DNA of 64,000 nucleotides from Leucoraja ocellata (lineage: Eukaryota). Below are positions 40 through 59,718 of the stretch, one piece after another. The first letter of the stretch is position 1, and every line of letters begins with the position of its first letter. The translations under genes were made by a program, and so were the position numbers. Location: assembly GCA_036785375.1 (NCBI GenBank), contig JAWMAR010000244.1:1426001-1490000 (forward strand), written 5' to 3'. The notes under the pieces are model-generated. The model did not search any database. It was not told the DNA's origin and saw only the letters and a list, made by a program, of their open reading frames with translations.

Positions 40-774
40 AATTTAAATTGTTCTTATATTTTAAGAGTCATTCACATTTTAAACTTTAATAAAACCTTTT
101 TACACTTTTAATGCTGTGTGTTCTTCATCGCAATAGGACCTAATAGGCAGGAACGGCTGCTCTGTGGGAGAGCCACTAAGAGTGCATGGGGGGAGGTTGT
201 TTGGAGATGCACTGAATGTGTGGGTGTGAGGGGAATGGCAAGGAGCAGAGTGGGGGGGGGGGGGGGGGTGAAGGTAGGTGGGGTGACTGAGTGAACTGCC
301 AGCGTACCAGGCGTGAGTGTCTGCACTGCCAGCTCACGAGCCGTGAGTTAGTGAACTGCCAGCCCACCAGCTGTAAGTGACTGAACCTCCAGCCCAATAA
401 TCCATTCAGTCCACCCTCTTCCCCCTTCTCTCTTACAGTCTGTCACCTGTTTTGGGCAGAATTTCTGGCAGTTTCTCAGCCGCCAGCCTGCCAGGTCCGA
501 GTGATTGTACTGCCAGGCCTCAGTGACTGAGCTGCCAGGCCTCAATGACTGTGCTGCCAGCCCAAAAATCCATTTGGCCCACAAACCCCATACTAGCCCT
601 CTGGAAATCAGTACCTTTGGCCCACAACACTCATACTAGCGCAACGGAAAGCCCCCCCTTCCCCCCCCCCACCACTGGCCAGCAATATTGGAATTGGTGG
701 AGAGGTGGAATATTGTGTTGGGTGTCCAGCCCTCCCTTGTGATGCTGGGACCCAACGAGTCCCACTTAGTCTAG
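40..774 (+). mobile_element. Non-autonomous Helitron-like element, 3' part (5' end not resolved)
   Basis: Ends TGGGACCC-AAC-GAGTCCCA-CTTAGT-CTAG|T (hairpin 746-764, CTAG 771-774). Bases 620-730 match the reverse complement of the 53833-54565 copy; 50-95 resembles 55124-55170. Degenerate ~30-bp GTGACTGAGTGAACTGCCAGC repeats at 283-560. Confidence 0.75.
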
Positions 775-1358
775 TATTGTATATATATAAAAGTACAGTG
801 TATAGGGAACGTTAAAAAAATATGGGCACCATTTCAACTTTAACTTGCAATTTTCAAGAAACGATATGATAACCAAAATCGCTCCGTGGCAGTCAGATCT
901 GGGAATTAAATGAATCTGCTTATAAAATAAATGTATCTGTTTATAAAAGAGAAAGGGGGGAAATGACAGAAAGGAAGGAAAAGCCTGTGACTAAGGATGA
1001 AATCACTTCAAAAATAAAGGATCTTATGAGAGGCAAGCAGGCAGTGAAGACTTTATGGTATAATTATGAATATTTTAGGGTGTGTTAGGGGTTATATATC
1101 AGCAGCTAAGAAGCGGTAGGTTGCCAAAATGTAGAAATAGCAAATTAGTTAGCAATGGTACAATGACTTTAATGACAGATTTTAAATTTCATATCAATAG
1201 AAATGATCAGAGAAGCCCATGTTTGAATTTCTCAAATGTATTCTGGGTGGTGTATTGTGATAATATGTGCCATAATCTACGAGGGAACAGACCATTATTG
1301 GATTTAGGAATGAGTAATAAGGCAAATTTAGTTAACAGTCAAACAGTGTATGAATCTT

Positions 1359-1452
1359 AGGTACAGAAAAAATCTGGAGAAACTCAGCGGGTGCAGCAGC
1401 ATGTATGGAGCAAAGGAAATAGGCAACGTTTCAGGCCGAAACCCTTCTTCAG
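1359..1452 (-). mobile_element. Penelope-derived short repeat with minimal hammerhead ribozyme core; 15-bp TSD
   Basis: Minus strand reads CTGAAGA-AGGGTTTCGGCCT-GAAACGTT. Flanked by direct repeat CAGTGTATGAATCTT at 1344-1358 and 1450-1464. Confidence 0.75.
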
Positions 1453-2271
1453 TGTATGAATCTTGTCTAATACAAATTATTTCCATGTAGATTTCAAGAG
1501 GGAGAAGCACAAAACAGGTACAATGATTCAAGATTAGATGTGGCTAGCTTTCACAAGATGAGATAGAAAATGGCTATGGATTATTTGTGAATCTGTTAAT
1601 GTGTAAAATGTCAGAAGATCAGTGGGATTTGTTCAGAAAACGTTGATGAAATGCAATTCATAACCCAATAGCTCTAATTGACTTTAAAAGCATAGCTGAC
1701 TAAACTGATAGCATTAAAACTAGAAATGGAACATATCTTGGTGACTTTGAGTGACACAAAGAAAAACAAATAGTGAAAAGGGAGCTACAAAAAAGCAATC
1801 TGAAAAGTAGAATCTATACAAAAACTTACAAATCTATTGATCAAGTGAGATGTGCCTTCTGTAGTATTATTTCAAATGGAAATTAAGAAGTAATTGACGT
1901 TGCAAAACAACTTTAAATCAGTATTTATCATAAAGGAGAGTAAGCTGAAAACCTATTAAAATTAATATTGAATCAAGAACAGGGTGTCATCAGATTAACC
2001 AAAGTGAACTATATAATGATGCTATCTGGATATTTTGATTCTATCTGCATGAATTTCCCCTGGGTGTTCTGTTTCCTTCCATATCCCACAGATGTCCTGG
2101 TTGGTACCTTAATTGGCTACTGTAAATTGCCCTTAATATAAGTGGGTGGGTAGAAGAATCAGTTTTGTTAATGCGCATGTGTGGAGGAATAGGTAAGGAA
2201 GAAATCGATAGGAGAATGAAAATGGTGTTGCTCTGAGAGCAGGCATGTCGATGGATAAATGGCCTATTTCT

Positions 2272-2355
2272 TCATCTGCATTTCGTTGTACTGCATATCG
2301 CTGTCTCTGTACTGTACACTGACAATGACAATTAAAGTTGAATCTGAATCTGAAT
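2272..2355 (+). mobile_element. Rex1/Babar-type LINE 3' tail fragment
   Basis: CTGTACTGTACACTGACAATGACAATTAAAGTT followed by (GAATCT)n, the same tail as the Rex1 copy at 43668-44827. Confidence 0.65.
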
Positions 2356-2583
2356 TATGAATATTAATATACAAATATTTAAAATGACCAAAAAAATCAG
2401 AACCAAATGATTTCAATTGAAGAGAAACAAGTAAGAACATTGCAGAAACTTAGCTATAATGTTCCAAGTTTATTTGGTCTATTTGTATAGATTGGAAAAT
2501 TGGGAGATTTTCTCTATTATTTAAGGTTTTGGAGAGAAGGAAACAAAGATATTATAGATCAGTTCCTCTGACAACTGTCATCT

Positions 2584-3007
2584 AGTCAAGTCAAGTCAAG
2601 TTTATTTGTCACATACACATACGAGATGTGCAGTGAAATGAAAGTGGCAATGCTCACGGACTTTTGTGCAAAAGACAAACAACAAAACAACCAAACAAAT
2701 TATAAACACAATCATAACACACATATTCTTTTACATAATAAGTAATGGAAGGAAAAACGTTCTGTAGAGTTAGTCCCTGGTGAGATAGGCGTTTACAGTC
2801 CGAATTGCCTCTGGGAAGAAACTCCTTCTCAACCTCTCCGTTCTCACCGCATGGCAACAGAGGCGTTTGCCTGACCGTAGCAGCTGGAACAGTCCGTTGC
2901 AGGGGTGGAAGGGGTCTCCCATGATTTTATTTGCTCTGGAGTTGCACCTCCTGTTGTATAGTTCCTGCAGGGGGGTGAGTGAAGTTCCCATAGTGCGTTC
3001 GGCCGAA
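2584..3007 (-). mobile_element. 5'-truncated Rex1/Babar LINE (RT C-terminus + 3'UTR)
   Basis: ORF 2770-2991 (LQELYNRRC...HPCNGLFQLLRSGKRL...SFFPEAIR) is homologous to the C-terminus of the RT at 15992-16807; (CTTGA)n tail at 2584-2600. Confidence 0.8.
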
Positions 3008-3164
3008 CTAGAATCTAGAAATTACTAGTGAATATTTAGGCTAAAAGTGGTTCAACATGAGGCAAATTTTCAGCAGATGAGAGAGTGCTGCGATTGTAGC
3101 AGATAGCACGTGAAAGTAAAAGCTTGAGAGAGTTCACAAAGGGCTCCTCATACAGGTACTCGCC

Positions 3165-3716
3165 TCATCACATTCTTTGATTTGGTCTCATAATTTGAGA
3201 AAGGACATTCTTGCTATTGAGGGATTGCAACATAGGTTCACCACGTTAATTCTCGGAATGGCGGGACTGACATATGATGAAAGAATGGGACGACAGGGCT
3301 TGTATTCACTGGAATTTAGGATGGGAGGGGATCTTATAGAAACACATAAAATTCTTAAAGGATTGGACAGGCTAGATGCAGGAAAAATGTTCCCGATGTT
3401 GGGGGAGTCCAGAACTAGGGGTCACAGTTTATGAATAAGGGGTAGGCCATTTAAGACTGAGATGAGGAAAAACATTTTCACCCAAAGAATTGTGAATCTG
3501 TGGAATTCTCTGCTAGAGAAGGCAGTGGAGGCCAATTCACTGGATGTTTTCAAGAGCCAGTTAGATTTAGCTCTTCAGGCTAAAGGAATCAAGGATATGA
3601 GGAAAAAGCAGAAACCGGGTACTGATTTTGAATGATCAGCCATGATCATGTTGAATGACAGCGCTGGCTCGAAGGGCTGAATGGTTTACTTCTGCACCTA
3701 TTTTCTATGTTTCTAT
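3165..3716 (+). mobile_element. 5'-truncated CR1 LINE
   Basis: Encodes [14 protein letters not shown]...[20 protein letters not shown]; 3'UTR ends in TTTCTATG repeats. Confidence 0.9.
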
Positions 3717-4234
3717 AAGCTCCACAATTTTATTGATTCTTAGCAGGGTAAGTCTTCGGGTAACTTTGGATCATTGATGTTTTTAATGGTGCTTAAGAAT
3801 CCACACATGCCCTGATTATAGACTTGTTTAGTGGCAACTTGCATGAGAGTCTCAAGTGGACATGCACGCTCTGAGCCGTTCAAATTATAGGTAAAGTATA
3901 ATTCAAAGTAAATGTGACACAGAAATACAACAGGCCACAACAATAGTTTTATTTGAATGAAGCCATTAAGTGGACCATTCTTATCCCTGTCCCTCACCTT
4001 TCAATTTGGTGACTGAGGGCAGTGTGATCTTTGTTCTGCATCAAGAGTAATTCCTCATCATGTAGATTAAACAACAGTCCAAGATAAGGTGAAGTTAGCA
4101 TCGAAAGATAAGAAGTTTGCCACTGATAACACCGCTATGGCTTACTTCTGCACCTATGTTACAGTGACCTTGTGTTCACTGTAACCTGCCCATCTTCATC
4201 ATGGGAATTAGCTTATATTGCAGTAAATTATGAT

Positions 4235-4440
4235 GAATGACTGAATTAATATTTTATTGTCACATGTGACATACCCACATGCTTTGGGTATGTGACACAT
4301 ACCCAAAGCATGCAAATAGTTGCAACATTGAGGGCGCTTACAAAGTTACAGAGTACTCCCAGGTTGGGTCCTCCATTGTTCATTGTTCTTTCCCCTCCTT
4401 CATGGCAGTCCCATCAAGCCGGGGCACCCCGCTGTGTAAC
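4235..4440 (-). mobile_element. Short non-coding retroposon fragment, (ATTC)n-tailed family
   Basis: Reverse complement resembles 39875-40186 (ACTTTGTAAGCGCCC...TTGCAT...TGTCACATGTGACAATAA). Confidence 0.5.
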
Positions 4441-4982: not shown

Positions 4983-6196
4983 CTAGACCAAGTGCAGACC
5001 CGTTGGGTCTGTTCCCCCAACGTGCGGTTGTGGAGGGGGAAGCGGCATGCAGCGTCACACACACTAACTATCTCCCCCCCCCCCCCGCACTCACGCTAAT
5101 TATTGATATTATATTAATATTATTACTTTGCTCCTTTTACCCCATAACCACCCTATCTACTGACGCATAGCCCCCAACTTGCAGTCACATCTAGAGAGGG
5201 GGGGAGGGGAGCGGGTAGAGAGTGAGAGCAGAGAGAGATGGGGCAGAGACACGGAGAGAGGGGCAAAAGGGCGAGGGGGGTGGTGAGGAGGAGAAGAGGG
5301 AGGGTGGGTGAGAGGGAAAAGGTGGGGGTGGAGGGGAGGAGAGAGAGAAGGTGAGAGTGAGGGGGAGAGGGGGGGAGGTGAGGGGAGGGGGGAGGGGGGG
5401 AGGTGAGGGGAGGGGGAGAGGTGGGGAGCAGGGAGGGTGGAGGGAAGGGTGTAGGGGTATGTGGAGGGGATGGAGGTTTAGGCGAGGGATGGTGGGGGAG
5501 AGGATGGAGGGGAGCAGTGGGAGGAAAAGAGGGNNNNNNNNNNNNNNNNNNNNNNNNNNNNNNNNNNNNNNNNNNNNNNNNNNNNNNNNNNNNNNNNNNN
5601 NNNNNNNNNNNNNNNNNNNNNNNNNNNNNNNNNNNNNNNNNNNNNNNNNNNNNNNNNNNNNNNNNNNNNNNNNNNNNNNNNNNNNNNNNNNNNNNNNNNN
5701 NNNNNNNNNNNNNNNNNNTTTATTTCAACCCAAACCCCCCATACAACCATGTATGGGGGGTTTATTTCAACCCAAACCCCCCATACAACCATTTGCAGGC
5801 AGTGCTTTTTTACTTTAACCAAATTTTCATTTTCAAACCACATTAAGGGTACTTACTCACAGTTGTGTGCACATGTGTTCAGTATTATTCACAGCTCAGA
5901 GAAACGTGACCCTCTGCCTTCCTCCAGCTTGCAGACTAATTGAGGCACACCACTTCCTGGTTTTATAGTCCATCCCCCCTGCCGCCAGCGGGGGCAGCAG
6001 AGAGAATGGGGAATTTTGTAAAATCATTAACATCTCTGTCATTTTTCATCGACTGGTAAAATCCTCAGCACACATGTGGCAGAGGGGGGCTCTGAGTGTG
6101 GTGGCCAAAAATAACGGCCGTAGGTGGCGGCGTTCTCTCGGAAATCGCAGCACAGATCGCCAAAACGGGTCAAGAACAGACTTTTAGTAATATAGA
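4983..6196 (-). mobile_element. Non-autonomous Helitron-like element, both termini present
   Basis: Minus strand: A|TCTATATTACTAAAAG ... CAGACCC-AAC-GGGTCTG-CACTTGGT-CTAG|T. Inserted between A and T with no TSD, inside an old CR1 fragment. Contains a G/A-rich tract, an N gap and a 42-bp tandem duplication. Confidence 0.85.
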
Positions 6197-8032: not shown

Positions 8033-8381
8033 TTAATCATAATCATAATCGTAATCATAATGGTACTTTATTAGACGCATGTTTTGCAACATACGTGGAA
8101 TTTAATTTGCCATACAGTCATACCAATAAAGAGCAACAAGAAACCCAAATAAATGGTTACCATGAGCATCCACCACAGCAACTCCCCCACATCCTCACTG
8201 TGATGGAAGGCAAAAAAAGTTAAATCATCTTCCCTTCTTTGTTCTCGCGGTCAGACCACTCGAACTTTCCATTGTCGGGGCGATCTTGGCTCCCGCAGCC
8301 GGCGGTCGAGCCCTCCGCATCGGGGTGATCAAGCTCCCGCATCGGGGGGGATCTCAGTTCCCCGTGCCGGGCGATCAAACC
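8033..8381 (-). mobile_element. GC-rich non-coding retroposon, 3' portion
   Basis: Same family as 11607-12151: GCCTTCCATCACAGTGAGG hairpin, TGTTGCAAAACAT block and (ATTATG)n tail. Confidence 0.7.
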
Positions 8382-8491: not shown

Positions 8492-9465
8492 CCATATAAC
8501 CAGATAACAATTACAGCACGGAAACAGGCCATCTCGGCCCTACAAGTCCGTGCCAAACACGTATTCTCCCCTAGTCCCATCTACCTGCACTCAGACCATA
8601 ACCCTCCATTCCTTTCCCGTCCATATAACTATCCAATTTATTTTTAAATGATAAAATCGAACCTGCCTCCACCACCTTCACTGGAAGCTCATTCCACACA
8701 GCTACCACTCTCTGAGTAAAGAGGTTCCCCCTCATGTTACCCCTAAACTTCTGTCCCTTAATTCTCAAGCCATGTCCTCTTGTTTGAATCTTCCTTACTC
8801 TCAGTGGGAAAAGCTTATCCACGGGGACATTATCCTCTATTGTCCCCCCTTAACCTTCTGCACTCCAAAGAATAAAGACCTAACTTGTTCAACCTTTCTC
8901 TGTAACGTAGTTGCTGAAACCCAGGCAACATTCTTGTAAATCTCCTCTGTATTCTCTCTATTTTGTTGACATCCTTCCTATAATTAGGCGACCAAAATTG
9001 TACACCATACTCCAGAATTGGCCTCACCAATGCCTTGTACAATTTTAACATTACATCCCAAATTCTATACTCAATGCTCTGATTTATAAAGGCCAGCACA
9101 CCAAAAGCTTTCTTTACCACCCTATCTACATGAGATTCCACCTTCAGGGAACTGTGCACAGTTATTCCTAGATCCCTCTGTTCAACTGCATTCCTCAATT
9201 CACTACCATTTACCATGTACGTCCTATTTAGATTTGTCCTGCCAAGATGTAGCACCTCACACTTATCAGCATTAAACTCCATCTGCCATCTTTCAGCCCA
9301 CTCTTCCAAATGGCCTAAATCTCTCTGTAGACTTTGAAAATCTACTTCATTATCCACAACACCACCTATCTTAGTATCATCTGCATACTTACTAATCCAA
9401 TTTACCACACCATCATCCAGATCATTGATGTACATGACAAACAACAGTGGACCCAACACAGATCC
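8492..9465 (-). mobile_element. CR1 LINE, 5'-truncated, with RT core
   Basis: ORF 8830-9510: GSVLGPLLF.MYINDLD...KYADDTK...LVRPILEYGVQFWSP; (ATGGTTAT)-type tail. Confidence 0.92.
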
Positions 9466-10190
9466 ATGTCCTTTTGCATGGAGCTTGGATGACCTCCCTA
9501 TTGCAGCCACAGTGAGATGAGATGGAGACTTTCATGAGCAACTGCATCCTGGAATGGTTCGTAGTCTGGGAAGAGAAATGTGACTGATCTTGATCTCCAT
9601 AGGGAAAGGTTTGAAAACACCTGTGTCAGTCCTGTGTTTCAGGTCACAGTAAGTTATAAATTGAGGAGAAAGTTCTTCATAAAACCTGGTTTCCATGGCA
9701 ATAGGCTAAAAGCTGGTTGTTCTGTGAGTATGTAAATAAATTAATTTTCCAATATGTGAAGGTTGAAAACTGTGCTGCAAGTGAAACTGCCATGATTTGG
9801 AGAGGGGCCTGGAAGAGTGGAAATTCTGCTGACCAATAAGGAAGTAAATAAGACAGGCACCAAGGCACGCTGAAAATGAGGCAATATTGCTCTGCCTCAA
9901 GTTAAATACACGTTCAAGCACACCCAAGGCTGTTTATTGGAGTTATGCTAAGGTATTCCCAAAGAGGTTCCAAAGGCATGCGGATTGTTGGGTAATTGAC
10001 CTCTATAAATTGCCCCTAGTGTGTAGGGAGTGGACGTGAAAATAGGACAACATAGAACTACTATGAACAATGGTCGGCATGGACTCAGTTGGCCCAAGGG
10101 CCTGTTTCTATGCTGGATCTTTCAATTAATTCTTAGAATCTTAAAAAAAATTATCTTATTTCGTGATTCTGGGATCTATTACATAACTAA

Positions 10191-15307: not shown

Positions 15308-17007
15308 ACTTCACTCCCTGACGAGCTCAATGCATTTTACGCACGCTTTGACAGGGAGAATACCGATGTGCCTTCCCGATCCCCCATTTGCTGTGATGGC
15401 ATTTCAGTCTCAGTCACAGAGGCCGATGTCAGGAAATCCTTCAGAGGGGTGAACCCCCGAAAAGCACCTGGTCCTGAATGTATACTCGGTCGTGTTCTAA
15501 AAACCTGTGCGGACTAACTGGCGGGAGTTTTTACAGACATTTTCAACCTCTCACTTCTGAGGTCTGAGGTTCCCACCTGCTTTAAAAGGGCATCAATTAT
15601 ACGAGTGCCCAAGAAAAGTAAGGTGACGTGCCTCAATGACTATCGACCAGTGGCACTAACGCCGGTGGTGATGAAGTGCTTTGAGAGGTTGATCATGGAG
15701 CAAATCAACTCCTACCTCGACAAAAACCTGGACCCACTGCAGTTCGCGTACCGCCACAACAGATCAACGGTGGATGCGATCTCGCTGGCTCTCCACTCCG
15801 CACTGGTCCACTTGGACAACAAAAACTCATATGTCAGGCTGTTATTCATTAATTACAGCTCGGCATTTAACACAATCATCCCCTCCAAACTGGTCACCAA
15901 ACTCGCAGAACTGGGTCTCTGGGCATCCCTCTGCAACTGGATCCTCAACTTCCTCATCCACAGACCATAGTCTGTTCGTATTGGTGGAAATATGTCAGCC
16001 TCGATAACAATCAGCACGGGAGCACCTCAAGGCTGCATGCTCAGCCCGCTGCTGTACTCACTCTATACCCATGACTGCATAGCAAACCACAGTGCGAATT
16101 CCATCATCAAGTTCGCTGACGACACCACTATTGTGGGGCGTATCACTGATGGGGATGAGTCAGAGTACAGAAGAGAGATCGGACAACTGTCCATATGGTG
16201 CCAGCGCAATAACCTGGCCCTCAACACCAGCAAAACCAAGGAACTGATTGTGGACTTTGGAAGGAGTAGGAGGGGGACCCACAGCCCCATCTATATCAAT
16301 GGGTCGATGGTTGAAAGGGTCAAGAACTTGAAATTCCTGGGCGTGCACATCTCTGAAGATCTTTCCTGGTCCGAGAACACTAACGCAATTATCAAAAAAG
16401 CTCATCAGCGCCTCTACTTCCTGAGAAGATTACGGAGAGTTGGATTGTCAAGGAAGACTCTCTCTAACTTCTACAGGTGCACAGTCGAAAGCATACTGAC
16501 TGGTTGCATCGTGGCTTGGTTTGGCAATTTGAGCGCCCTGGAGAGGAAAAGACTACAAAAAGTAGTAAACATTGCCCAGTCCATCATCGGCTCTGACCTT
16601 CCTTCCATCGAGGGGATTTATCGCAGTCGCTGCCTCAAAAAGGCTGGCAGTATCATCAAAGACCCACACCATCCTGGCCACACACTCATCTCCCTGCTAC
16701 CTTCAGGTAGAAGGTACAGGAGCCTGAAGACTGCAACAACCAGGTTCAGGAATAGCTACTTCCCCACAGCCATTAGGCTATTAAACCTGCCTCGGACAAA
16801 ACTCTGATTATTAATAACCACTTTCTGTTATTTTCACTTTACCAGTTTATTTATTCATGTATATATTTATATCATGGTATATGGACACATTTATCTGTTT
16901 TGTAGTGAATGCCTACTATTTTCTGTGTGCTTAAGCAAAGCAAGAATTGCATTGTCCTATACAGGGACACATGACAATAAACTCACTTGAACTTGAACTT
17001 GAACTTC
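15308..17007 (+). mobile_element. Rex1/Babar LINE, 5'-truncated, RT with in-frame stops
   Basis: [38 protein letters not shown] and KFLGVHI motifs; stops at 15515 and 15968; (ACTTGA)n tail; short ACTTCA repeat at both ends. Confidence 0.93.
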
Positions 17008-22588: not shown

Positions 22589-23351
22589 GTAGATTACTAT
22601 CTAAATGGCATCAAGTTGGGTAAAGGGGAAGTACAACGGGATCTGGGGGTCCTTGTACATCAGTCTATGAAAGTAAGCATGCAGGTTCAGCGGCAGTGAA
22701 GAAAGCGAATGGCATGTTGGCCTTTATAACAAAAGGAATCGAATATAGGAGCAAAGAGGTCCTTGTGCAGTTGTACAGAGCCATAGTGAGACCACACCTG
22801 GAGTATTGTGTGCAGTTTTGGTCCCCTAATTTGAGGAAGGTCATTCTTGCTATTGAGGGAGTGCAGCGTAGGTTTACAAGGTTAATTCCCAGGATGGCAG
22901 GACTGTCATATGCTGAGAGAATGGAGCAGCTGGGCTTGGACACTCTGGAGTTTAGAAGGATGAGAGGGGATCTCATTAAAACATATAAGACTGTTAAGGG
23001 CTTGGTCACGCTAGAGGCAGGAAACATGTTCCCGATATTGGGGGAGTCCAGAACCAGGGGCCACATTTTAAGAATAAGGGGTAAGCCATTTAGAATGGAG
23101 ACGAGGAAACACTTTTTCTCACAGAGAGTGGTGAGTCTGTGGAATTCTCTGCCTCAGGTGGAGGCAGGTTCTCTGGATGCTTTCAAGAGAGAGCTAGATA
23201 GGGCTCTTAAAAACAGCGGAGTTGGGGGATATGGGGAGAAGGCAGAAACGGGGTACTGATTGGGGATGATCAGCCATGACCACATTGAATGGCGGTGCTG
23301 GCTCGAAGGGCCAAATGGACTACTCCTGCACCTATTGTCTATTGTCTATTG
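22589..23351 (+). mobile_element. CR1 LINE, 5'-truncated
   Basis: ORF 22696-23259 KKANGMLAFI...[14 protein letters not shown]...GYGEKAETGY; (CTATTGT)n tail. Confidence 0.92.
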
Positions 23352-24114: not shown

Positions 24115-24525
24115 CCCAGTTTTCTGTGGTTTTATATATAAAAATAAATTCAATTGCTTAGTGCACAAGTTTTTCCTATGAAATAGAATCTCTAGGCCAT
24201 GAAATGTCAGTTAGCCCTCTGTGGTTGTCCCTGCTCTTTCAAAACAACTTCTAATTGCTCTCACTCCCCGACTCTTTCCTCATGGCATGTAATTTGTTCT
24301 TGGTCCTGAGGCAATTGTATCTATTATTAGCGATTGTCCAAAGATAGACACAAAATGCTAGAGTAACTCAGCGGGTTAGGCAGCATCTCTGGAGAAAATA
24401 GATATGTGATGTTTTGATTTGGGACATTTTGAAGGGTCCCAACCCTTCAAACCAATCTTTTTTCTCTAGAGATGCTGCCTGACCTGCTGAGTTACTCCAG
24501 CATTTTAGTTTCTATCTTTGGTGTA
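24115..24525. repeat. Arm 1 of an inverted local duplication (partner: 27635-27836 joined to 29912-30118)
   Basis: AATTCAATTGCTTAGTGCACAAGTTTTTCCTA (from 24147) is the reverse complement of 30051-30082. Homology continues through to the inverted Penelope pair. Confidence 0.8.
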
Positions 24526-27836: not shown

Positions 27837-29911
27837 CTAGACTAACTGGGACCCGTTGGGTCTCAGCTTCACACGGGAGGACTGGTCCCCCAATGCAATA
27901 TTCNNNNNNNNNNNNNNNNNNNNNNNNNNNNNNNNNNNNNNNNNNNNNNNNNNNNNNNNNNNNNNNNNNNNNNNNNNNNNNNNNNNNNNNNNNNNNNNNN
28001 NNNNNNNNNNNNNNNNNNNNNNNNNNNNNNNNNNNNNNNNNNNNNNNNNNNNNNNNNNNNNNNNNNNNNNNNNNNNNNNNNNNNNNNNNNNNNNNNNNNN
28101 NNNNNNNNNNNNNNNNNNNNNNNNNNNNNNNNNNNNNNNNNNNNNNNNNNNNNNNNNNNNNNNNNNNNNNNNNNNNNNNNNNNNNNNNNNNNNNNNNNNN
28201 NNNNNNNNNNNNNNNNNNNNNNNNNNNNNNNNNNNNNNNNNNNNNNNNNNNNNNNNNNNNNNNNNNNNNGCACACACTCACACANNNNNNNNNNNNNNNN
28301 NNNNNNNNNNNNNNNNNNNNNNNNNNNNNNNNNNNNNNNNNNNNNNNNNNNNNNNNNNNNNNNNNNNNNNNNNNNNNNNNNNNNNNNNNNNNNNNNNNNN
28401 NNNNNNNNNNNNNNNNNNNNNNNNNNNNNNNNNNNNNNNNNNNNNNNNNNNNNNNNNNNNNNNNNNNNNNNNNNNNNNNNNNNNNNNNNNNNNNNNNNNN
28501 NNNNNNNNNNNNNNNNNNNNNNNNNNNNNNNNNNNNNNNNNNNNNNNNNNNNNNNNNNNNNNNNNNNNNNNNNNNNNNNNNNNNNNNNNNNNNNNNNNNN
28601 NNNNNNNNNNNNNNNNNNNNNNNNNNNNNNNNNNNNNNNNNNNNNNNNNNNNNNNNNNNNNNNNNNNNNNNNNNNNNNNNNNNNNNNNNNNNNNNNNNNN
28701 NNNNNNNNNNNNNNNNNNNNNNNNNNNNNNNTCAAACAAACACACAAACACTTACACACACAAACACACATGCACTCACACACACACTCACACACACTCA
28801 CACTCACACTCACATACATTGACTCACAAACCATATATTTGACAGTGAACTTTCTTGAATCAACTCACGGTTGAGCGCGGGGCTTCCGCAGTCAGCGGCA
28901 CTTCCGCAATCAGCATGACCTCTGCACTCACCGGAAATTACGCAATCACGCGACCTGTCCACTAAGCGGAAGTCAGAAAATGGGCGGGACTTTTGGACTA
29001 AACATAGTCGGACCTAATAAAGTATTTATTCCTTCCAAACACAGTCAGACCTCATAAAGCATTTATTCCTTCCAAACACAGTTGGACGTAATAAAGCATT
29101 TATTCCTTCCAAACACAGTCAGACCTAATAAAGCATTTATTCTTTCCAAACACAGTCAGACCTAATAAAGCATTTATTCCTTCCAAACATAGTTGGACCT
29201 ATTAAAGCATTTATTCCTTCCAAACACAATTGGACGTAATAAAGCACTTATTCCTTCCCAACGCAGTCGGACCTAATAAAACAGTTAATCCTTCCAAACA
29301 CAGTCGGACCACATAAAGCATTTATTCCTTGCAAACACAGTCGGACCTAATAAAGCATTGCCGTTTCAAGCACAGGCAAGGCAGCAGGCCAAATAACTCA
29401 TGGCATTGTCATTTCATTTCATTTCATTTCCAATTAAGCATTGCACTTTCAAGCACAGGCAGGACAACAGGCCAAACAACTCATGGCATTGTCATCAAGG
29501 GCTAACAACTCATTTATTGTAAGTATATTGGAGACTCACAGTTCAGTTGATTCACAGCTTAGAATGACAGTCATGGCCCCTCCCTTGTGACCTTGCAGAG
29601 TGACTGACTCACGTCCAGGCATCCGGGGTTTTATAGTCCTCCTCTCCCCCCCCCCCCCCCCCCAGAAGGGGCGTTACCTTCACCACGGTGATTGACAGGC
29701 GAGAGGACCAATCAGCTGATCTCAAGGTTTTTTAAACACTCATAACTTTTTTTATTTTTCATCAATGGGAAAAATCCGCAGGGCTGGCTCAGCGGAGGAG
29801 GACTGTGAGTAAGATGGCCAACAATCACAGTGATACAGGGTAGCATTTTTTCTAAAATCAATATACAGCGCAGACAGGAAGTGGTCAAGATGAGACTTTT
29901 AATTATATAGA
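27837..29911 (-). mobile_element. Non-autonomous Helitron-like element with cargo (CA-rich microsatellite, GC-rich module, 37-bp array)
   Basis: Minus strand: TCTATATAATTAAAAGTCTC ... CTGAGACCC-AAC-GGGTCCCAG-TTAGT-CTAG|T. Its 5' 380 bp is homologous to 5855-6196. Absent without TSD from the paralogous site at ~24317. Two N gaps inside. Confidence 0.82.
29000..29358. repeat. 37-bp minisatellite, about 9.7 head-to-tail copies
   Basis: Unit AAACACAGTC(A/G)GACCTAATAAAGCATTTATTCCTTCC; no spacers. Confidence 0.95.
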
Positions 29912-36345: not shown

Positions 36346-36358
36346 GCTGAAACTGAGC

Positions 36359-37023
36359 TATGCTATGCTCAGATAGAGAAGGGACTGCTTGCCGTGGTTT
36401 TTGCCTGCTCAAAATTTAAAGACTTTATCTTTGGCAAAACCTTCATGGTCAAGACCGACCACCAGCCATTTGTTATCATCCTGAGCAAGCCTATCCATGC
36501 TGCTCCAGCTTGACTACAGCAAATGATGATGCAGCTGCAACGGTTTGACTTCCGCATTGTCTACAAAAAAGGTTAAGACATGCACATCGCAGCTACACTA
36601 TCCAGAGCCCCACGCACCACCAGCGAACGACACCTGTTTGAACAGGACGAATTCTCGGTCCTGAAAGTCTCGTTTGTGCCCACTGATCGCCTGCACTGCG
36701 AACACACAGCTGCAGACAAAACCTCACAGCTGCTGACCTCCATCATAAGAGGCGGGTGGCCAAACAAGCAGTCCAGCACCCTGGTTGAAATACAACCCTA
36801 CTTCCTGGTCCGTGACGAACTGGTGTTACAGGACGTAATAATCGTCAAGGGTCACAAGGCGGCCATTCCCCCAACCTTGCGAAATGAGTACTATGAGGAA
36901 ATCCACGGAGGCCACCCTAAAATGCCACGAGCTAAGGAAATGATCTACTGGCCCGGGATGACCAAGTACATACGTGAAAAAACGGAATCGTGCGCGATCT
37001 GCAACAGTCAATCACCGCACTAA
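36359..37023 (+). pseudogene. Gypsy/Ty3 LTR retrotransposon pol fragment (RNase H to integrase Zn finger)
   Basis: YAQIEKGLLAVVFACSKF...TDHQP...YKKG*DMHIAATLSR and HGGH...YWPGM...CAIC (HHCC); in-frame stops; no LTRs seen. Confidence 0.88.
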
Positions 37024-38274: not shown

Positions 38275-39399
38275 AAATGATCGGAGTGGCGGCGCGGATC
38301 TGGCTGCAGCGGCTTACCGGCAGTCCCGTTGTTTTGTGTTTTTTATGTTAAACTAAGTCTAGTTTTTTGGTTTTAGCTTGTGTTTTTTGGGGGGGGGGGG
38401 GTGGTTGAAACGGGGTTTGCAGTCTCTCCCTGCGGGGGAATACGACCTTTTTGTCGTATTCCCCTTCTCTGCCTCCGTCTACGCTGAGGCCTAATGGAGC
38501 TGGCGACCTCGAGGCTCCGGAGGCAGAGCACCGTCAGGACTCGCCCTGAGCTCGCTCCCGTGAGGGTGGTCCAGCTCAGGGCTGGAAGAGGTTGGGACGC
38601 TCCCGTGAGGGTGGCCAGCCCGAGGGTGGAACGAGGCTCCCGTCGGAGCGGCCGAGCTCGGGAAGGTGCGGCGCTGGCAGCCCGAGGGAAGTTCGGCGCC
38701 CAAGTCGGGGCAGCCCAGCCCGGGGAAGAAGCTACGCCCAAGTCGGGGCGGCCCGGTCTGGGGGAGGTTCAGCGCCCAAGTCGGGGCGGCCCAGTCCGGG
38801 GGAGGTTCGGCGCCCAAGTCGGGGCGGCCCGGTCCGGGGGAGGTTCGGCGTCCAAGTCGGGGCGGCCCAGCCCGAGGGAGAGCGACGCCCAAGTCGGGGC
38901 GGCCCAGCCCGAGGGAGGTTCGGCGCCCATGTCGTGCGGCCCGGTCCGGGGGAGAAGCGACGCCCATGTCGGGGCTGCCCGGTCCGGGGAAGAAGCGACG
39001 CCCATGTCCGGGGCGGCCCAGCCCGAGGCTGAAGACGGCGCAGTACTCACGTGAGGGTGGCTGGGACGGTGTCCTGGCGGTGGTGGCCTGAGTCCGGGGT
39101 TTGGCCGCGGGCCAGCGGCTGCGTCTGCAGGACTGCTGGGCGGCAGCTTCAACCACCCCGGGCTGTGGTGTTTGAGCCGCGGGACTGTTCTTAACATCGC
39201 CCGGGTGGGGGGGGGGGGGTATGGCCCCAGCCAGAGGGATAAGATGAGGGAAGAGACTGCAGACCTAAGACTTTTGCCTCCATCACAGTGAGGAGATGCT
39301 GGGTGGACTCACTGTGGTGGATGTTAAGATGTGTTTATTGTTGTTTTATTGTATTGTATTATATGTATGACTGCTGCAATTTCGTTCAGACTTCGGCCT
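38275..39399 (+). mobile_element. GC-rich non-coding retroposon with central VNTR
   Basis: GC-rich 5' leader, T-rich/poly-G block, about 9 copies of a ~38-40 bp unit, 3' stem CCATCACAGTGAG...CTCACTGTGGTGG (39280-39320); tail runs into an N gap. Confidence 0.7.
38690..39030. repeat. GC-rich ~38-40 bp minisatellite
   Basis: Unit CGCCCAAGTCGGGGCGGCCC(A/G)G(T/C)CCG(G/A)GGGAGGTTCGG and variants. Confidence 0.9.
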
Positions 39400-41529: not shown

Positions 41530-43402
41530 CAGAAAAAGCAGCCTACCAGAGGACTGGGAGAAATTCAGAGTCCATCAGAGGAGGACAAAGATCTTAATTA
41601 GGAAAGGGAAAATAGATTATGAAAGAAAACTGGCAGGGCACAGCAAAAGCTTTTAAAGATATGTGAAGAGAAAAAGATTAATTAAAACAAATGTAGGTCC
41701 CTTGCAGTCAGAAACAGGTGAATTGATGATGGGGAACATGGACATGGCAGACCAATTGAATAACTACTTTGGTTCTGTCTTCACTAAGGAAGACATAAAT
41801 AATTTGCTGGAAATAGCAGGGGACCGGGGGTCAAATAAGATGGAGGAACTGAGTGAAATCAAGGTTAGTCAGGAAGTGGTGTTAGGTAAATTGAATGGAT
41901 TAAAGGCCGATAAATCCCCAGGGCCAGATAGGCTGCATCCCAGAACGCTTAAGGAAGTAGGCCCAGAAATAGTGGATGCATTAGTGATAATTTTTGAAAA
42001 CTCTATAGATTCTGGAGTAGTTCCCAAGGATTAGAGTGTAGCTAATGTAACCCCACTTTTTAAAAAGGGAGGGAGAGAAAAAACGGGGAACTACAGACCA
42101 GTTAGTCTCACATCGGTAGTGGGGATACTGCTAGAGTCAGTTATTAAAGATGGGATAGCAGCACATTTGAAAAGTGGTGAAATCATTGGACAAGGTCAGC
42201 ATGGATTTATGAAAGGTAAATCTTGTCTGACGAATCTTATAGAATTTTTCGAGGATGTAACTAGTAGAGTGGATAAGGAGAACCAGTGGATGTGTTATAT
42301 CTGGACTTTCAGAAGGCTTTTGACAAGGTCCCACATAAGAGATTAGTATGCAAACGTAAAGCACACGGTATTGGGGGTTCTTTATTGATGTGGATAGAGA
42401 ACTGGCTGGCAGACAGGAAGCAAAGAGTAGGAGTAAACTGGTCCTTTTCACAATGGCAGGCAGTGACTAGTGGGGTACCGCAAGGCTCAGTGCTGGGACC
42501 CCAGCTATTTACAATATATATTAAAGGTTGTGGATGAGGGAATTGAATGCAACATCTCCAAGTTTGCGGATGACAGGAAGCTGGGGGGCAGTGTTCGCTG
42601 TGAGGAGGATGTTAGGAGGCTGTAAGGTGACTTGGATAGTTTGGGTGAGTGGGCAAATGCATGGCAGATGCAGTATAATGTGGATAAATGTGAGGTTATC
42701 CACTTTGGTGGCAAGAACAGGAAAGTAGATTATTATTTGAATGGTGGCCGATTGGGAAAGGGGGAGATGCAACGAGACCTGGATGTCATGGTACACCAGT
42801 CATTGAAAGTAGGCATACAGGTGCAGCAGGCAGTGAAGAAAGCGAATGGCATGTTAGCATTCATAGCAAAAGGATTTGAGTATAGGAGCGGGGAGGTTCT
42901 ACTGCAGTTGTACAGGGTCTTGGTGAGACCACACCTGGAGTATTGCGTACAGTTTTGGTCTCCAAATCTGAGGAAGGACATTATCGCCATAGATGTAGTG
43001 CAGAGAAGGTTCACCAGACTGATTCCTGGGATGTCAGGACTTTCATATGAAGAAAGACTGGATAGACTTGGTTTGTACTCGCTAGAATTTAGAAGATTCA
43101 GGGGCGATCTTATAGAAACTTACAAAATTCTTAAAGGCTTGGACAGGCTAGATGCAGGAAGATTGTTCCCGATGTTGGGGAAGTCCAGGACAAGGGATCA
43201 CAGTTTAAGGATAGAGGGGAAATCCTTTAGGACCGAAATGAGAAAAAAAAATTCCGCACAGGGAGTGGTGAATCTCTGGAACTCTCTGCCACAGAAGGTA
43301 GTTGAGGCCAGTTCATCGGCTATATTTAAGAGGGAGTTAGTTGTGGCCCTTGTGGCTAAAGGGATCAGGGGGTATGGAGAGAAGGCAGGTACGGGATACT
43401 GA
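41530..43402 (+). mobile_element. CR1 LINE ORF2 (long fragment with frameshifts, no 3'UTR)
   Basis: KSPGPD, NYRPVSLT, QHGFMKGKSCLTNL, YLDFQKAFDKVPH, GVPQGSVLGP and KFADD motifs. Confidence 0.95.
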
Positions 43403-45326
43403 GGTGGATGATTAGGAAAAGGGAAGATACAACACGACCTGGGTGTCATGGTACACCAGTCATTGAAAGTTGTCATTCAGGTGCAGAAGGCAGTGAAGAA
43501 AGCGAATGGTATGTTTGCATTCATAGCAAAAGGATTTGAGTATAGGAGCATTGAAGTTCTACTGCAGTTGAACAGAGCCTTGGTGAGACCACACCTGGAG
43601 TACTGCGTACAGTTTTGGTCTCCAAATCTGAGGAAAGACATTCTTGCCATAGAGGGAGTACAGAGAATCAGATTCAGATCCAGATTCAACTTTAATTGTC
43701 ATTGTCAGTGTACAGTACAGAGACAACAAAATGCAGTTAACATCTCCCTGGAAGAGCTACTTAGAATATGATTTCAATAAATAAATCTATTTACATGTAT
43801 ACAGATATAGTGTTTTTCCTGTGGGAGGAGCGTCCGGGGGGGGGGGGGGGGGGGGTTGATTGGCGACCTGCTGGTCCGGCAACGGAGAGACCTGTAGCGC
43901 CTCCCGGATGGTAGGAGGGTAAACAGTCCATGGTTGGGGTGAGAGCAGTCCTTGGCGATGCTGAGCACCCTCCGCAGACAACGCTTGCTTTGGACAGACT
44001 CAATGGAGGGGAGCGAGGAACCGGTGATGCGTTGGGCAATTTTCACCACCCTCTGCAGTGCTTTCTGGTTGGAGACAGAGCAGTTGCCATACAATACTGT
44101 GATACAGTTAGTAAGGATGCTCTCGATGGTGCAGCAGTAGCAGTTCACCAAGATCCGAGGAGACAGATGGACCTTCTTCAGTCTGCTCAGGAAGAAGAGA
44201 CGCTGGTGAGACTTCTTGACCAGAGTTGAGGTATTGTGGGTCCAAGAGAGGTCATCAGAGATGTTGACCCCCAGAAACCTGAAGCTGGAAACACGTTCCA
44301 CCTCCGTCCTGTTGATGTGGATGGGGTTGTGCGTGCCGCCCCTAGACTTCCTGAAGTCTACAATGAGCACCTTGGTCTTCTTCGAGTTAAGGGCCAGGTT
44401 GTTGTCAGCGCACCATGCTGCTAGGTGCTGGACCTCCTCCCTATAGGCCGACTCATCGTTGTTGCTGATGAGGCCAATCACCCTTGTATTCTCTGCATAT
44501 TTGATGATGGTGTTAGTACCATGTACAGGTGTGCAGTCGTAGGTGAAGAGGGAGTAGAGGAGGGGGCTCAGCACACAGCCCTGTGGAACGCCGGTGTTCA
44601 GGGTGAGGGTTGAAGAGGTGTGCTTGTCTAACCTAACAAACTGGGGCCTGTTGGTTAGAAAGTCCAGTATCCAGTTGCAGAGGGAGGGGTCGATGCCCAG
44701 GTTACAGAGTTTGGTGATCAGTTTAGATGGAATAATGGTGTTGAATGCTGAGCTGTAATCGATGAACAGCATTCTTACGTAAGTCTCTTTGTTGTCGAGG
44801 TGGGAAAGGGCGGAGTGAAGTGCCGTTGAGAAGGTTCCCCAGACTGATTCCTGGGATGGCAGGACTTTCATATGAAGAAAGATTGGATAGACTCGGCTTG
44901 TACTCGCTAGAATTTAGAAGATTGAGGGGGTATCTTATAGAAACTTACAAAATGTTTAAAGGGTTGGACAGGCTAGATGCAGGAAGATTGTTCCCAATGA
45001 TAAGGATGTCCAGAACAAGGGGTCACAGTTTAAAGATAAGGGGGAAGTCTTTTAGGACCGAGATGAGAATTTTTTTTTTCACACAGAGTGTGGTGAATCT
45101 GTGGAATTCTCTGCCACAGAAAGTGGTTGAGGCCAGTTCATTGGCTATATTTACAAGGGAGTTAGATGTGGCACTTGGAGCTAAAGGGATCAGGGGTTAT
45201 GGAGAGAAAGCAGGTACAGGATACTGAGTTGGATGATCAACCATGATCATATTGAACGGTGGTGCAGGCTCGAAGGGCCGAATGGCCTACTCCTGCACCT
45301 AATTTCTATGTTTCTATGTTTCTATG
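43403..45326 (+). mobile_element. Second CR1 3' segment in tandem, interrupted by Rex1
   Basis: 43403-43667 plus 44828-45227 repeats 42745-43402; complete 3'UTR and (TTTCTATG)n tail. Confidence 0.92.
43668..44827 (-). mobile_element. Rex1/Babar LINE, 5'-truncated, inserted in CR1
   Basis: [21 protein letters not shown], catalytic motif degenerate (KYAEN); (GAATCT)n tail; 5-bp TSD GAGAA (43663-67 / 44828-32). Confidence 0.93.
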
Positions 45327-53832: not shown

Positions 53833-54234
53833 CTAGACTAAGTGGGACCCGTTGGGACCTGAGGGCTGGTCCCCCAACGCAATATTCCACATCTCCACCA
53901 ATTCCAATATTGCTGGCCAGTGGGGGGGGGGGGGGGGGGGGGGGCCTCTGGAGTGCTAGTATGCGTGTATGGGTGTTGTGGGCTGAAGGGACTGGTTTCC
54001 AGAGGGCTAGCTGTGGGGGAGGGGGTGAAGGGGAGGAGGGGAAGAGAAAGAGAGGGGAGAGAGGGGAGAGAGAGAGAGGGGGAAAGAGAGAGAGAGAGCG
54101 GAGGAGATAGAGGGGGAGAGAGAGGGAGGGTGTGAGAGAGAGGTGGGGGAGAGAGCGAGAGAGGGGAGAGGGGGAAAGAGAGATATAGGGGAGGGAGAGA
54201 GGTGGGGAAGATAGCGAGAGGGGGGAGAGAGAGG

Positions 54235-54280
<46 letters not shown>

Positions 54281-54565
54281 TGGGAGGCAGGTGGGCCTCG
54301 ATTGGTGGGCATGTGGGCATTGTGATGTCAGCAGCTGGCAAGCGCCAATTTAAAGTGAGTTTTGTGAACAATTTTATTCAAAATCTGGAGAAATAATTGA
54401 CCAAATCTAGAGAGGATTTCTGGAATCATAAGTGAAATCCCTATCGAAATATGTAAAAATCACCGTGTCTTTGCGTCTGGTTTTCGAGGAGATACGTTTC
54501 AAAGGCAAAATGACATACACCCCCACACACACACACACACTCACAGTGTTCTAAAAGTATATAGA
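53833..54565 (-). mobile_element. Non-autonomous Helitron-like element, both termini present
   Basis: Minus strand: A|TCTATATACTTTTAG ... GGTCCC-AAC-GGGTCCC-ACTTAGT-CTAG|T; no TSD; internal (GA)n and poly-G tracts. Confidence 0.82.
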
Positions 54566-54589
54566 TATGATATGATAGATAACACATTG

Positions 54590-55665: not shown

Positions 55666-56631
55666 ACAATGAGAGATTTGTTACCTTGTTGTAAGGAAGT
55701 GGGGGAGGGGAGAGGGTGAAATGTTATTTAAACATTGTGTTTAGTGGGGGAGTGCGATAGGGGAGATGTGAGGAGTGGAGGAGCAGGGAGATAGAGTGAG
55801 AGGAGTGGAGTAGGGAGGGGAGAGTGGTTATGGAGGGGGAGGGAGTGACAGGGTTGGGGAAGGAGAGGGAGGGATAGGTGAGGAAGGGAGTGGTGGAGGA
55901 GGAGCAGAGGAAGGGGTTGAGAAGAGGGAGGGTGAAGAGGAGGGAGAGGGTGTGTGAGCCACAATTGGGGGCTATGGGTGAATGGTGGAATATTGTGTTT
56001 GGGGAACGGGTTGCATTGGTGGAACAGATAAGTGGTGGAAACAGGTTGCGTTGTGGGAATGGGTGAGTGGTGGAATATTGCGTTAGGGGAATGGGGCACA
56101 ACGGGTCAGGGAGTAGGGAGGGGAGAGGGGTTATGGAGGGAGGGAGGGAGGAGGGAGGGAGGGAGTGACATGGTATGGAGTCACTGAGGGTAGGGCAAAG
56201 GAGAGGGAGGGAGAGGTGAGGGAGTGGAGGAGGAGAGGGGAGAGAAGAGGGAGGGTGAAGAGGAGGGGGTGGGAGTACTGGGGTATGAGGGGAAATGAGT
56301 CGCACCTGCGCAGTTGGGGGCTATGGTTGAGTGGTGGAATATTGCATTGGCAGAATGGGTTGCGTTTGGGGAACGGGTGAGTGGTGCAATATTGCATTGG
56401 GTGAATGGGGCCCAACGGGTGAAGAGGAGGGAGAGGAATTGCTGGGGATGAGGGGAACTGGAGGGGGATAGGGCAAGGCGCACTTGGGGAGGGTTGCCTT
56501 GACTCGCATCACAACAGGGATCTCTGGCGTCACAACGGGAACCCATCAACCACGTGGGGGAGCAGGGAGATAGAGGGAGAGGAGGGGATAGGGAGGGGTG
56601 ATGGGTTATGGAAGGGGGGAGGGAGTGACTC

Positions 56632-56795
56632 ATATATATATATGCCATTTATTGTCACTATACATGTACAATGAGATTAAAAGCAGCTCGTATTCAGTGC
56701 ATACATATAATTTAGTACAAAAAACAAGAAACAGAAAACAAAACAAAAGGGGGGTGGGATAGGTGCACAATTCTGCGGCGCTATATACATATCTA
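56632..56795 (-). mobile_element. LINE 3' tail fragment inside the Helitron-like element
   Basis: (TA)n followed by TTTATTGTCAC, the tail signature shared with Rex-type elements in this window. Confidence 0.45.
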
Positions 56796-59718
56796 TGAAG
56801 GCAAAATGGTGAAGGATGAATAGGTAGTATTCTTAGGCAGACTTACTGAGTGTAAGGGAACAGAGAGGGAGGGAGTGGTGAGGGAAGAAGTGGGGAAGAG
56901 GAGGAGGAGAGGTGAAAGAAAAGGGAGGGTCAAGAGGAGGGGAAGGGAGTGCTGAAGGATGAGGGGAATGGAGGAGTATAGGGGTAGGAAGAGGGATGGC
57001 GAGGCGCAGTTGTGGAGGGTTGCTGTGACCTGCGTCCCAACGGGGATCTCTGGCGTCATAATGCGAACCCATCAGCCACATCTGCGCAGTTGGGGCTAGG
57101 GATGATTGGTGGAATATTGTGTTCGGCAGGGACCCAACGGGTCCCACTTGGTTTAATCGAATATAAAAACAGTGAGGCTATAGTAAACTTTTTCAAAACA
57201 CTGGTCTGCCTCGAGTTGAGTATTGTCTTCAATTCTAGTCTTCTTGTCAGAGGAAGAATGCAAAGGCACTAAAGATGATCCAGAAAAAAGTTACAAGAAT
57301 GGTTCCTGCAATGATACTGCAGTTAGAAGGATGGGTTAAAGATGCTCGGACTGTTTCCAATGAGTGGAGATTTGATAGAAATAGATCAAATAATGGGTTG
57401 TAGATAGAGTGAATGGTGGGAGGCTGTAGGTCAGAATAATAAAATGGTCAGCAGAATAAGAAGAGAATTAAGAGTGACATGAAGAAACACTGTTTTTACA
57501 AAGTGTGTTTGAAGTCTGGAATACACTGCCTGCAGATGAGATATAGATGTGAGTTCCACAGTGGCCTACTGTGCAAAAGGGGAAAAGGTTAAACTTACAG
57601 TGAGGAAAAGTTTCCAAGACTGCTGAGAAGGGGCTGGGAGGTTGAATGGCACGGATACAAAGGCTAAATGGCCTCCTTTTGTGTTGTAATGATTCTATGA
57701 TACAGATGCAGAAAGAGAAGGTGGTGCTAACCCCTCAAGATTTGCAAAGAATAAAAGGTTGCCTCGAAATATCTTCATTTTGTTTCAACAAATGTTCGGG
57801 CACTCTTCACTGATTCTAAATCATGTAACTCGGTTATAATCGAAAGCACTCATGCTTGTGATGTCATTCAAGAATCAGAACGTGCTGTTGTTATCCGATA
57901 TCATTTGGTTAGTATTCCACTGGTTGCTTTCTCCCCAAGCATATAACATATGATGTAGAGATGTACCAACATTATAAACCCATGCTGGACACTAGTAACC
58001 TCCATCTTTAATGGACAAATATTTTCATGCATTCATTATTGTAGTTTCCGAACATACTGACTGAAATATTTTAATCATTACCAACACCATGGATATCTTT
58101 CACAAAACCAGCTGAGTAGCTCAAGATTCCACATAATCTACTTTTTTAAGCAGTAATCAAAATGTCATCTCCAGATGCACTGCACAAAGATAATGGTGGT
58201 CTCAAAGTTTAACTCAATGTTTCTGGTGAAATACCAATTACAAATTGTAAAGAAGTCTTTAAATGTCCCCATCATAACACATCATATTATCAACTACGAG
58301 CTTAGTCATGCTGTTCTGAATCTACCCTGTTCCGTTATTCATAAAGAATTGTAAAAGTACTGGTTAGAGTTACTTGCTCGAAAAAACTATTAATTTAGTT
58401 GATTAATTTATTGTCTTCATCCTCCACAGCTTTGAATAGCCAAGTTTAATTCACAGATTCATATGGATCTTTATTGATCAAATTTAAATTTCTTAGGAAT
58501 TCATAACCATGCATGAAGAGTTCCCTTTAAATGTTACATCAAACAATACTTTCGTAGTAACGAAGATCTCAGATCATAATTACTATTAAAATGATGAACA
58601 AAAATGCAGAAACGTATTGATTATGATGGTGAGAGAAATACTGACCTGTGGAAATCTTCATGATTCACAGATGACACTGCATGAAGGATTCAGCCAAACT
58701 CTTCTTTTTTTCTTTCCACTCATTAAACATTTTTGACATTATCATGTAACAGAAGATTCCTGTCAGCTTGCTGACTTATATTGTTCCAATCGTAAATGGT
58801 TTTAATCATATTGCAGTGTCTGAAGTTGTTCACTGCTGCGCAATTCTCAATAACACCTTGATCACACTTACTCAACGGCATCCAGTCTGCTTCGGAAAAC
58901 TGAAAAGTCTTGGTCCAGTCTGGCTTTCTAAAACTAGACAAGCAAGTCAGAACAGGTGCTGACTCAGATTAATAATCACGAGACTGCAACTTGGATAAAT
59001 CCTGTCGAGCTTTTGCTGAGAATATTTTAGAGGCTTTTCTGGAAGAGGAATCTTGCACTCAGTTTGAATCTGACAGATTTCTGGCCCATCAAAAAACATC
59101 CTCTGTACCACCAATCTTTATACCACCATCTCTTGGCAGCAGGGTGAAAACTGTGGATCTAAGATGTACAGCAATATTCCACCCAAAAAAACACAGGATT
59201 CCTTAGTGGTTAAAAAGCTTTGTCCAAAATTGCTGCAAAAATTACCATTCATTTTTCATCCATTATTTTGCATTTGGTTATAAATCTAGATTTTTCAATA
59301 AAAATGTATGATATTAAAGTGTGTCATTTAAGTATAATAACCAACATCTAATTGTAGAGAGCAGCTGCCTGAAGCGACTGTTGATGCCACCAGAAAAGGC
59401 GCGATATTTATTTTCATTCCCTTTCGAGTAATCGTGAGCTCATTTCTTGAAACTTTGTAAACTAATTAAAACAAAATCATAATAGTTCACAATTCCATTG
59501 TCATCCAATAGATGAAACGAATTGTGACAGTTAAGAAAAATACATATCAGGCATAATGTGGCTCAGAAAATTTCCAGAAAAAAAAAGTTTCACTGTCACG
59601 AAATACACATTATTGCAAAAGAAGTACTGAACAGCAAAAAAAGCAAAAAACATTCATCTGAGATGGATTGGTACGTGAGTGCAATTGTCTGTGGTCTTCA
59701 ATAACTGTGATCTTCATT

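Follow-up and report, generated by a model that had tools for sequence, protein, structure and literature searches.

Which kind of mobile element left five segments with alike 3' ends in one short stretch of skate DNA, and how does such an element choose its sites? The stretch, 64 kb of contig JAWMAR010000244.1 of Leucoraja ocellata (the window; its coordinates are used throughout), was read in an earlier note as holding five Helitron-like elements that end in a hairpin with a constant AAC loop, and each copy is named here by the position of its 3' end. With a probability of about 0.8, the segments are non-autonomous copies, together with one deletion derivative, of a Helitron1 family of thousands of copies, which is likely mobilised by RepHel transposases encoded elsewhere in the genome and which enters A|T sites that have TA(AA) on the downstream side at a distance of 8-9 bases, and hence likely also its own copies. 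The five ends lie where the earlier note had placed them, with CTAG|T at 774 on the forward strand and at 4983, 27837 and 53833 on the reverse strand, and with TTAA|T at 57153-57156 on the forward strand. The TCTATA starts that had been ascribed to three copies were found at 6196, 29911 and 54565 (reverse strand), and a fourth head, reading A|TCTATA, was located 3.9 kb to the left of the window, at G000:C244:1422095, and makes the 774 copy 4,680 bp long; heads are thus present for four of the five copies, and none was found where the 5' head of the 57156 copy was looked for. A|T placement, claimed for two copies, was read at the junctions of 4983, 53833 and 774, and the 27837 copy sits in G|T, as does its unoccupied paralogue within the window, without duplication. 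TA stands at +8 or +9 past the end in all five copies, as TAAAA in three. Five ends in 64 kb are a local excess: the earlier rate of one copy per 13 kb holds for the window and not beyond it, since a relaxed search of the window with 100 kb on either side (264 kb) gave eight such ends, or one per 33 kb (reversed control 0).

Across the whole assembly (3.44 Gb, 5,847 contigs), the 26-base end with a 7-base spacer is matched exactly at 8,112 places (control 0). The flanking bases, whose tabulation had been proposed, are T directly after 7,869 of these 8,112 ends and A directly before 91 of the first 100 heads listed (counted by hand). Fully paired hairpins of the forms CA..TG (9,299) and GG..CC (9,687) make up 95% of the 19,968 matches to SR..YS (controls 0, 0 and 3), exact terminal hairpins occur once per 172 kb, and at least 4,046 exact, intact heads belong to a single subfamily. 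Homology beyond CTAG was also checked, and similarity ends there, save where the head of another copy adjoins. Among 60 elements with both ends, the junction reads A|T in 45, T|T in 10 and otherwise in five, and none shows flanking duplications of at least 5 bases; at L013, L266, L070, L085, L260 and for window copy 27837, empty paralogues are continuous across the junction and lack a duplication, in agreement with the claim that target-site duplications are lacking. A 2-mer is common to both flanks in 21 of the 60, which probably reflects TA-rich targets; a 2-bp TA duplication is ruled out by empty paralogues such as those at L266 and L013. In a composite subfamily (L006, L028, L084, L085, L088 and L166), short GTTGCCTTGCC repeats are followed by a second head inside the element.

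The Rep/Helicase open reading frame (ORF) with the same termini, for which the earlier note had advised a search, is present in the genome. Of 150 scored candidates, 120 matched Pfam PF14214; nine of the 10 loci fetched belong to one lineage (A), and the tenth, C21, belongs to a second lineage (B), the core of which has 70-75% amino-acid identity to lineage A. At C2153, an unbroken RepHel ORF of 1,838 amino acids (Pfam Helitron_like_N, E 1e-53; PIF1, E 9e-68), with HUH, Y2, Walker and zinc-finger-like motifs, is followed by the same 3' terminus as window copy 4983. The C21 element has a broken ORF and retains the family head and 3' region, with the hairpin reduced to its 5' arm. Over 2.2-2.8 kb, ORF identity among the 15 top loci is 97-99% in 14 and 80% in one. 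Lineage-A copies, with a CAG..CTG hairpin, are 97-99% alike and include one intact ORF; the lineage-A RepHel may have been amplified recently and is possibly still active. Its N-terminal 450 residues (L126:1695-3100) are charged tandem repeats, the number of which varies between copies. As it matches Leucoraja erinacea LOC129716088 at 99% and Rhinoraja longicauda LOC144591268 at 74%, the transposase is already in databases, where RefSeq lists both proteins as 'uncharacterized protein' without the name of a Helitron transposase. Among the 120 of 751 matches listed in a word-limited search, the nearest named non-skate relative is a protein of the freshwater snail Physella acuta (64%), and no shark protein is named. 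In a quick tree of 27 rows (P0008 left out), which contained no labelled reference of Helitron1 (HLE1) or Helitron2 (HLE2), the skate sequences group with a support of 99 inside a clade that also contains the snail sequence and three proteins without names; an old horizontal transfer from molluscs is possible on these sequences.

The family shows the features of canonical HLE1, namely 5' TC, a 3' hairpin with CTRR, A|T insertion, no target-site duplication and a RepHel partner with the same termini; the exceptions at the 3' terminus are the TTAA of the 57156 copy and the decayed hairpin of the 53833 copy. The short terminal inverted repeats (TIRs), T|T target and frequent endonuclease domain of Helitron2/Helentron elements do not match its TC/CTAG ends and its majority of A|T junctions, and no endonuclease family appeared in a Pfam scan of the 1,838-residue RepHel. 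STPR domains, reported to be HLE1-biased in the part of the source cited (PMC11417382), are present in close relatives of the lineage-A RepHel. The Helitron reading of the earlier note is therefore supported by the termini, the A|T target, the lack of duplications and the RepHel ORF that shares the terminus; those of its proposed checks that were run all spoke for it. Its compensatory stem swap is real as well: the 4983 copy (CAGACCC/GGGTCTG) and the 57156 copy (GGGACCC/GGGTCCC) both have a perfect 7-bp stem with an AAC loop. Since the swap separates lineages A and B, it amounts to two base pairs in a single contrast between two transposase lineages and not to repeated covariation. The stem of the 27837 copy has 5 bp, that of the 774 copy has one mismatch, and that of the 53833 copy gives a fold z of -0.03, as against -1.05 to -2.13 in the other four.

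The target contains more than A|T. After 43 head-like flanks among 153 unique ones had been set aside and the five window ends left out, 79 later-fetched flanks remained, a set that is not fully blind, as the +8/+9 offset was fixed after part of the flanks had been seen. TA occurs at +8/+9 in 63 of the 79, against 25.7 expected from AT-matched sites and a maximum of 40 in 1,000 shuffles, and TAAA in 31, against 5.2 expected. The signal recurs in each of the two lineages (13/15 and 37/47 flanks), and the flanks are AT-rich over +1 to +13. For barley Helitrons, AAA beginning 8 bp downstream of A|T is described and read as a second contact one helical turn off in the passages cited (PMC5738225); the +8 rule itself is already known in plants. 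Strict target mimicry, in which the target would equal the left end of the element, was rejected, because TAAAA lies at +11 to +13 from the TC of the element versus +8/+9 in targets.

Because some family heads carry the TA(AA) motif, new copies likely land inside older ones and so give rise to head-to-tail chains. At 1,748 sites, CTAG is followed within 4-12 bases by the head core of the family itself (control 0); in the first 100 of these junctions listed (hand count), 93 lack TC and 78 place the host TAAAA at +8/+9. Spacing within the head appears decisive. The short head, with its 4,046 or more intact copies, would put TAAAA at +7 from its inner A|T, and no junction among the first 100 of 131 listed has this register; 98 are at +9 and two at +8. 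A variant head longer by two bases (263 intact copies) fits the 98 listed at +9, which gives hit rates of about 27-33% for long heads versus less than 0.8% at worst for short ones, and both +9 cases that could be checked have TCTA upstream, as predicted if long heads were hit. In a second subfamily, with a mostly long head, 41 of the first 100 of 927 heads stand directly after CTAG, 12 are intact long and five short (hand count). When loci were picked by the 3' end alone, head-like DNA followed 5 of 16 ends of lineage A and 12 of the 81 ends outside it under a liberal filter. On the reverse strand of G000:C244, about 12.7-13.3 kb left of the window, two ends form a nested chain in which a clipped head comes after each.

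Established Helitron biology comprises a nick at 5' TC, termination at the hairpin, a circular intermediate and A|T integration, as set out in the passages cited (PMC4778049, PMC5876387). In the skate family, RepHel would peel off one strand from the 5' TC nick and stop at the hairpin and CTAG, and the circle would integrate at A|T; the transposase presumably reads the target both at the nick and roughly one turn of the helix further downstream. Any head built as TCTA|T-N6-7-TAAAA would in that case be a good target as well, and each hit would leave TCTA upstream and a head without TCTA downstream; mixed arrays would therefore grow at their 5' side and TCTA tracts accumulate. Stubs, chimeras and composite units would spread if such an array was later copied, starting at its outermost TC and stopping at any terminator. 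The balance tips slightly towards a wider proposal, according to which Helitron1 transposases from barley to skates read TA(AA) a full turn of the helix beyond the nick, the head of the skate element becomes its own landing pad or not through a change of two bases, and repeated self-insertion builds polar mixed arrays and seeds (TCTA)n, each stub marking one past insertion.

The stubs are consistent with this proposal: TCTA precedes 22 of 100 listed heads, against a background of about 2%, and an adjacent stub occurs in 11 of 22 nested elements, as against 5 of the 55 others (p 2e-4; 98 rows, 77 of them unique and a few misclassified). In the C175 array, about 10 stubs accompany 11 ends, the last unit being of lineage B. 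When polarity was tested on the final 29 bases, this array alone gave a suggestive outcome, and most others were uninformative. Insertion into pre-existing TCTA microsatellites was rejected as a general cause, since the tracts lie on the 5' side only. The number of stubs was also rejected as an exact insertion counter, which fails at C2974, C168 and C455.

Several observations weigh against self-insertion as the source of arrays and stubs, or against a complete and active family. Divided by head type, the stub association is weaker (9/13 vs 1/7, p 0.06; 2/9 vs 4/48, p 0.24; combined p 0.01-0.03), and among 40 heads picked by stub, over half of which had no findable end, about 4 of 12 stub-bearing heads were nested versus 1 of about 15 stubless ones (hand count). 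Two stubs derive from a host repeat. Slippage or inheritance must add to the TCTA tracts, because many are longer than their arrays, with up to 27 repeats. The +9 junctions could partly be C|T cuts in short heads, and the seven of 100 listed junctions at which TC is kept could be concatemers. The sole intact ORF in the fetched loci sits within an array, its own TCTA missing, and C615, the only copy that has both ends, carries a frameshift. Reads on the RepHel ORF from three RNA runs numbered 5, 50 and 38, scattered over both strands and uninformative for a transcript; these 93 reads have no joints and no piles at start or end. Finally, the family counts may be inflated, because the assembly holds near-identical locus pairs tens of kilobases apart (L002/L003, L075/L076, L081/L082, L098/L099 and others), which, with the 3.44-Gb size, suggest uncollapsed haplotypes or local duplications.

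Helitron tandems are usually explained as concatemers in the passages cited (PMC5876387, PMC12001565), and the chains might accordingly be rolling-circle concatemers integrated whole, with TCTA tracts as unrelated microsatellites. The junctions that keep CTAG|TC and the 450-470-bp units repeated in some arrays would suit such an origin, which is nevertheless improbable: TC is absent from the great majority of junctions, neighbours often belong to different subfamilies or pair an autonomous with a non-autonomous element, junction frequency tracks the spacing in the host head, and among 84 ends listed none runs on as a TCTA repeat after CTAG. Slightly less credible still is an absence of any sequence-specific target reading, with insertions favouring easily melted AT-rich DNA and heads being hit merely as AT-rich, open sequence. 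De novo sites of Helraiser are described as AT-rich over about 20 bp, mostly on the 3' side, in the passages cited (PMC4778049), and the +1 to +13 composition of the skate flanks resembles them; the motif, however, stands against both AT-matched and shuffled controls, short heads, equally AT-rich, are uncut at their inner A|T, and the same asymmetric AAA is described for barley Helitrons (PMC5738225, passages cited).

A non-Helitron origin, in which the shared end would be the tail of a short interspersed element (SINE), long interspersed element (LINE) or TIR element, draws on the richness of the window in retroelement-like repeats, within which several copies lie. It is ruled out, with next to no probability left, by the RepHel ORF with the same terminus and by the lack of duplications of 5 or more bases in 60 elements; 5' TC, 3' CTAG, the 45 A|T junctions and the absence of a poly-A tail likewise point to a Helitron. 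Insertion of a Helitron1 family at A|T with a downstream TA(AA) is thus the preferred reading, under which the window copies (Table 1) can be described.

Table 1. Helitron copies and associated features in the window
Feature	Positions	Strand	Basis
3' part of 4,680-bp internally deleted lineage-B Helitron (hairpin 746-764; CTAG 771-774, then T)	1..774	+	83% over 767 nt to 3' untranslated part of decayed autonomous element on C21
TA at +8 past the end of the 774 copy	782..783	+	flank read directly
1,214-bp non-autonomous Helitron in A|T, CT-rich interior, hairpin 4995-5011	4983..6196	-	head/tail comparison, boundaries
2,075-bp non-autonomous Helitron in G|T site, 5-bp stem 27850-27862, TG-rich DNA	27837..29911	-	unoccupied paralogue 24200-24437
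733-bp non-autonomous Helitron in A|T, CT-rich interior, decayed hairpin near 53844-53860	53833..54565	-	last 190 nt 78% to 774 copy
TCTA/TCATA stub tract directly before head of 53833 copy	54566..54579	-	similar stubs before same head type in L165, L167, L025
3' part of decayed non-autonomous copy, TTAA for CTAG, hairpin 57129-57145, left boundary approximate	55670..57156	+	patchy 69-83% matches to family interiors in fetched loci

The 774 copy, with a head and body 80-95% alike to the C21 element and an 87-codon helicase remnant, is an internally deleted autonomous element related to C21. The 4983 copy is chimeric, its head being 86% alike over 310 nt to C21 (lineage B) and its tail 81-91% to the ends of C615 and C2153 (lineage A). 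The 27837 copy holds a 37-bp minisatellite (29000-29359), and an internal, TATA-box-like GGACTATAAAACC motif about 230-270 bases past the head is common to copies 4983 and 27837 (approximately 5972-5960 and 29639-29627, reverse strand). The tract before the head of the 53833 copy is likely the inherited remains of earlier self-insertions, and the mobile unit of this copy may start at 54579. Elsewhere in the window, a GC-rich 38-bp minisatellite of 8.7 copies (38682-39025) has no link to the Helitron ends, and open frames at 8830-9531, 15518-16807, 22624-23259, 42626-44913 and 36577-37023 resemble what we take to be LINE reverse-transcriptase fragments and one retroelement-like piece.

The Helitron target is usually stated as A|T and tandems are usually ascribed to concatemers; the skate family gives genome-wide counts for a stricter rule and connects that rule with self-insertion, with chimeric ends and with the origin of TCTA repeats. 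Cartilaginous fish are described as LINE-dominated and poor in DNA transposons in the passages cited (PMC10115646, PMC6817897), with which tens of thousands of Helitron ends in one of them contrast. As an intact vertebrate RepHel that was amplified recently, the transposase could be tried in transposition assays alongside the reconstructed Helraiser, and the 1,838-residue protein, if indeed recently amplified and possibly still active, would make the landing-pad reading testable. A literature search on helitron and leucoraja returned no papers, the main text of the little skate genome paper does not contain the word 'helitron', and no paper was found on this skate family or on a +8/+9 rule linked to self-insertion. 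A maize survey by Yang and Bennetzen reportedly noted a bias towards nesting in the same orientation, which may lower the novelty. The A|T target, the +8 motif and adjacent insertion are each already in print, so that the finding joins known facts and defines no new class; the family is an added member of canonical Helitron1 with a well-counted self-insertion rule.

Among known systems, Helibat1/Helraiser of Myotis bats shares with the skate family the 5' TC, the 3' hairpin with CTAG, A|T insertion without duplication and a single RepHel ORF, as well as many non-autonomous derivatives and an AT-rich 3' flank, as far as the passages cited go (PMC4778049, PMC5876387). According to the same passages, Helraiser activity is cut by loop changes and not by a stem swap, which the constant AAC loop with a swapped stem in the skate family fits. 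The skate family differs from Helraiser in that 7-8 nt separate CTAG from its 7-bp stem, which carries an AAC loop; the Helraiser passages describe neither a fixed-distance target motif nor insertion into the element's own head, and activity has been demonstrated for Helraiser, whereas the skate family is known from its sequences. Barley Helitrons (Wicker et al. 2017, PMC5738225) share the asymmetric target with AAA from 8 bp downstream of A|T; in the skate family, by contrast, the signal includes the T that precedes the A-run, and the barley passages do not tie the motif to self-insertion, arrays or stubs. Head-to-tail arrangement of different Helitrons through consecutive insertion, and composites with several 5' ends, are described for the adjacent Helitrons at maize r1 (Du et al. 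2008, PMC2267711) and the self-inserted FoHeli elements of Fusarium (PMC5148889). As described in those passages, the maize r1 junction keeps TC and FoHeli is non-canonical, whereas skate junctions are mostly without TC; and in contrast to the single or few cases in maize and Fusarium, the skate family offers 1,748 exact junctions, cut mostly four bases inside the head and dependent on its spacing.

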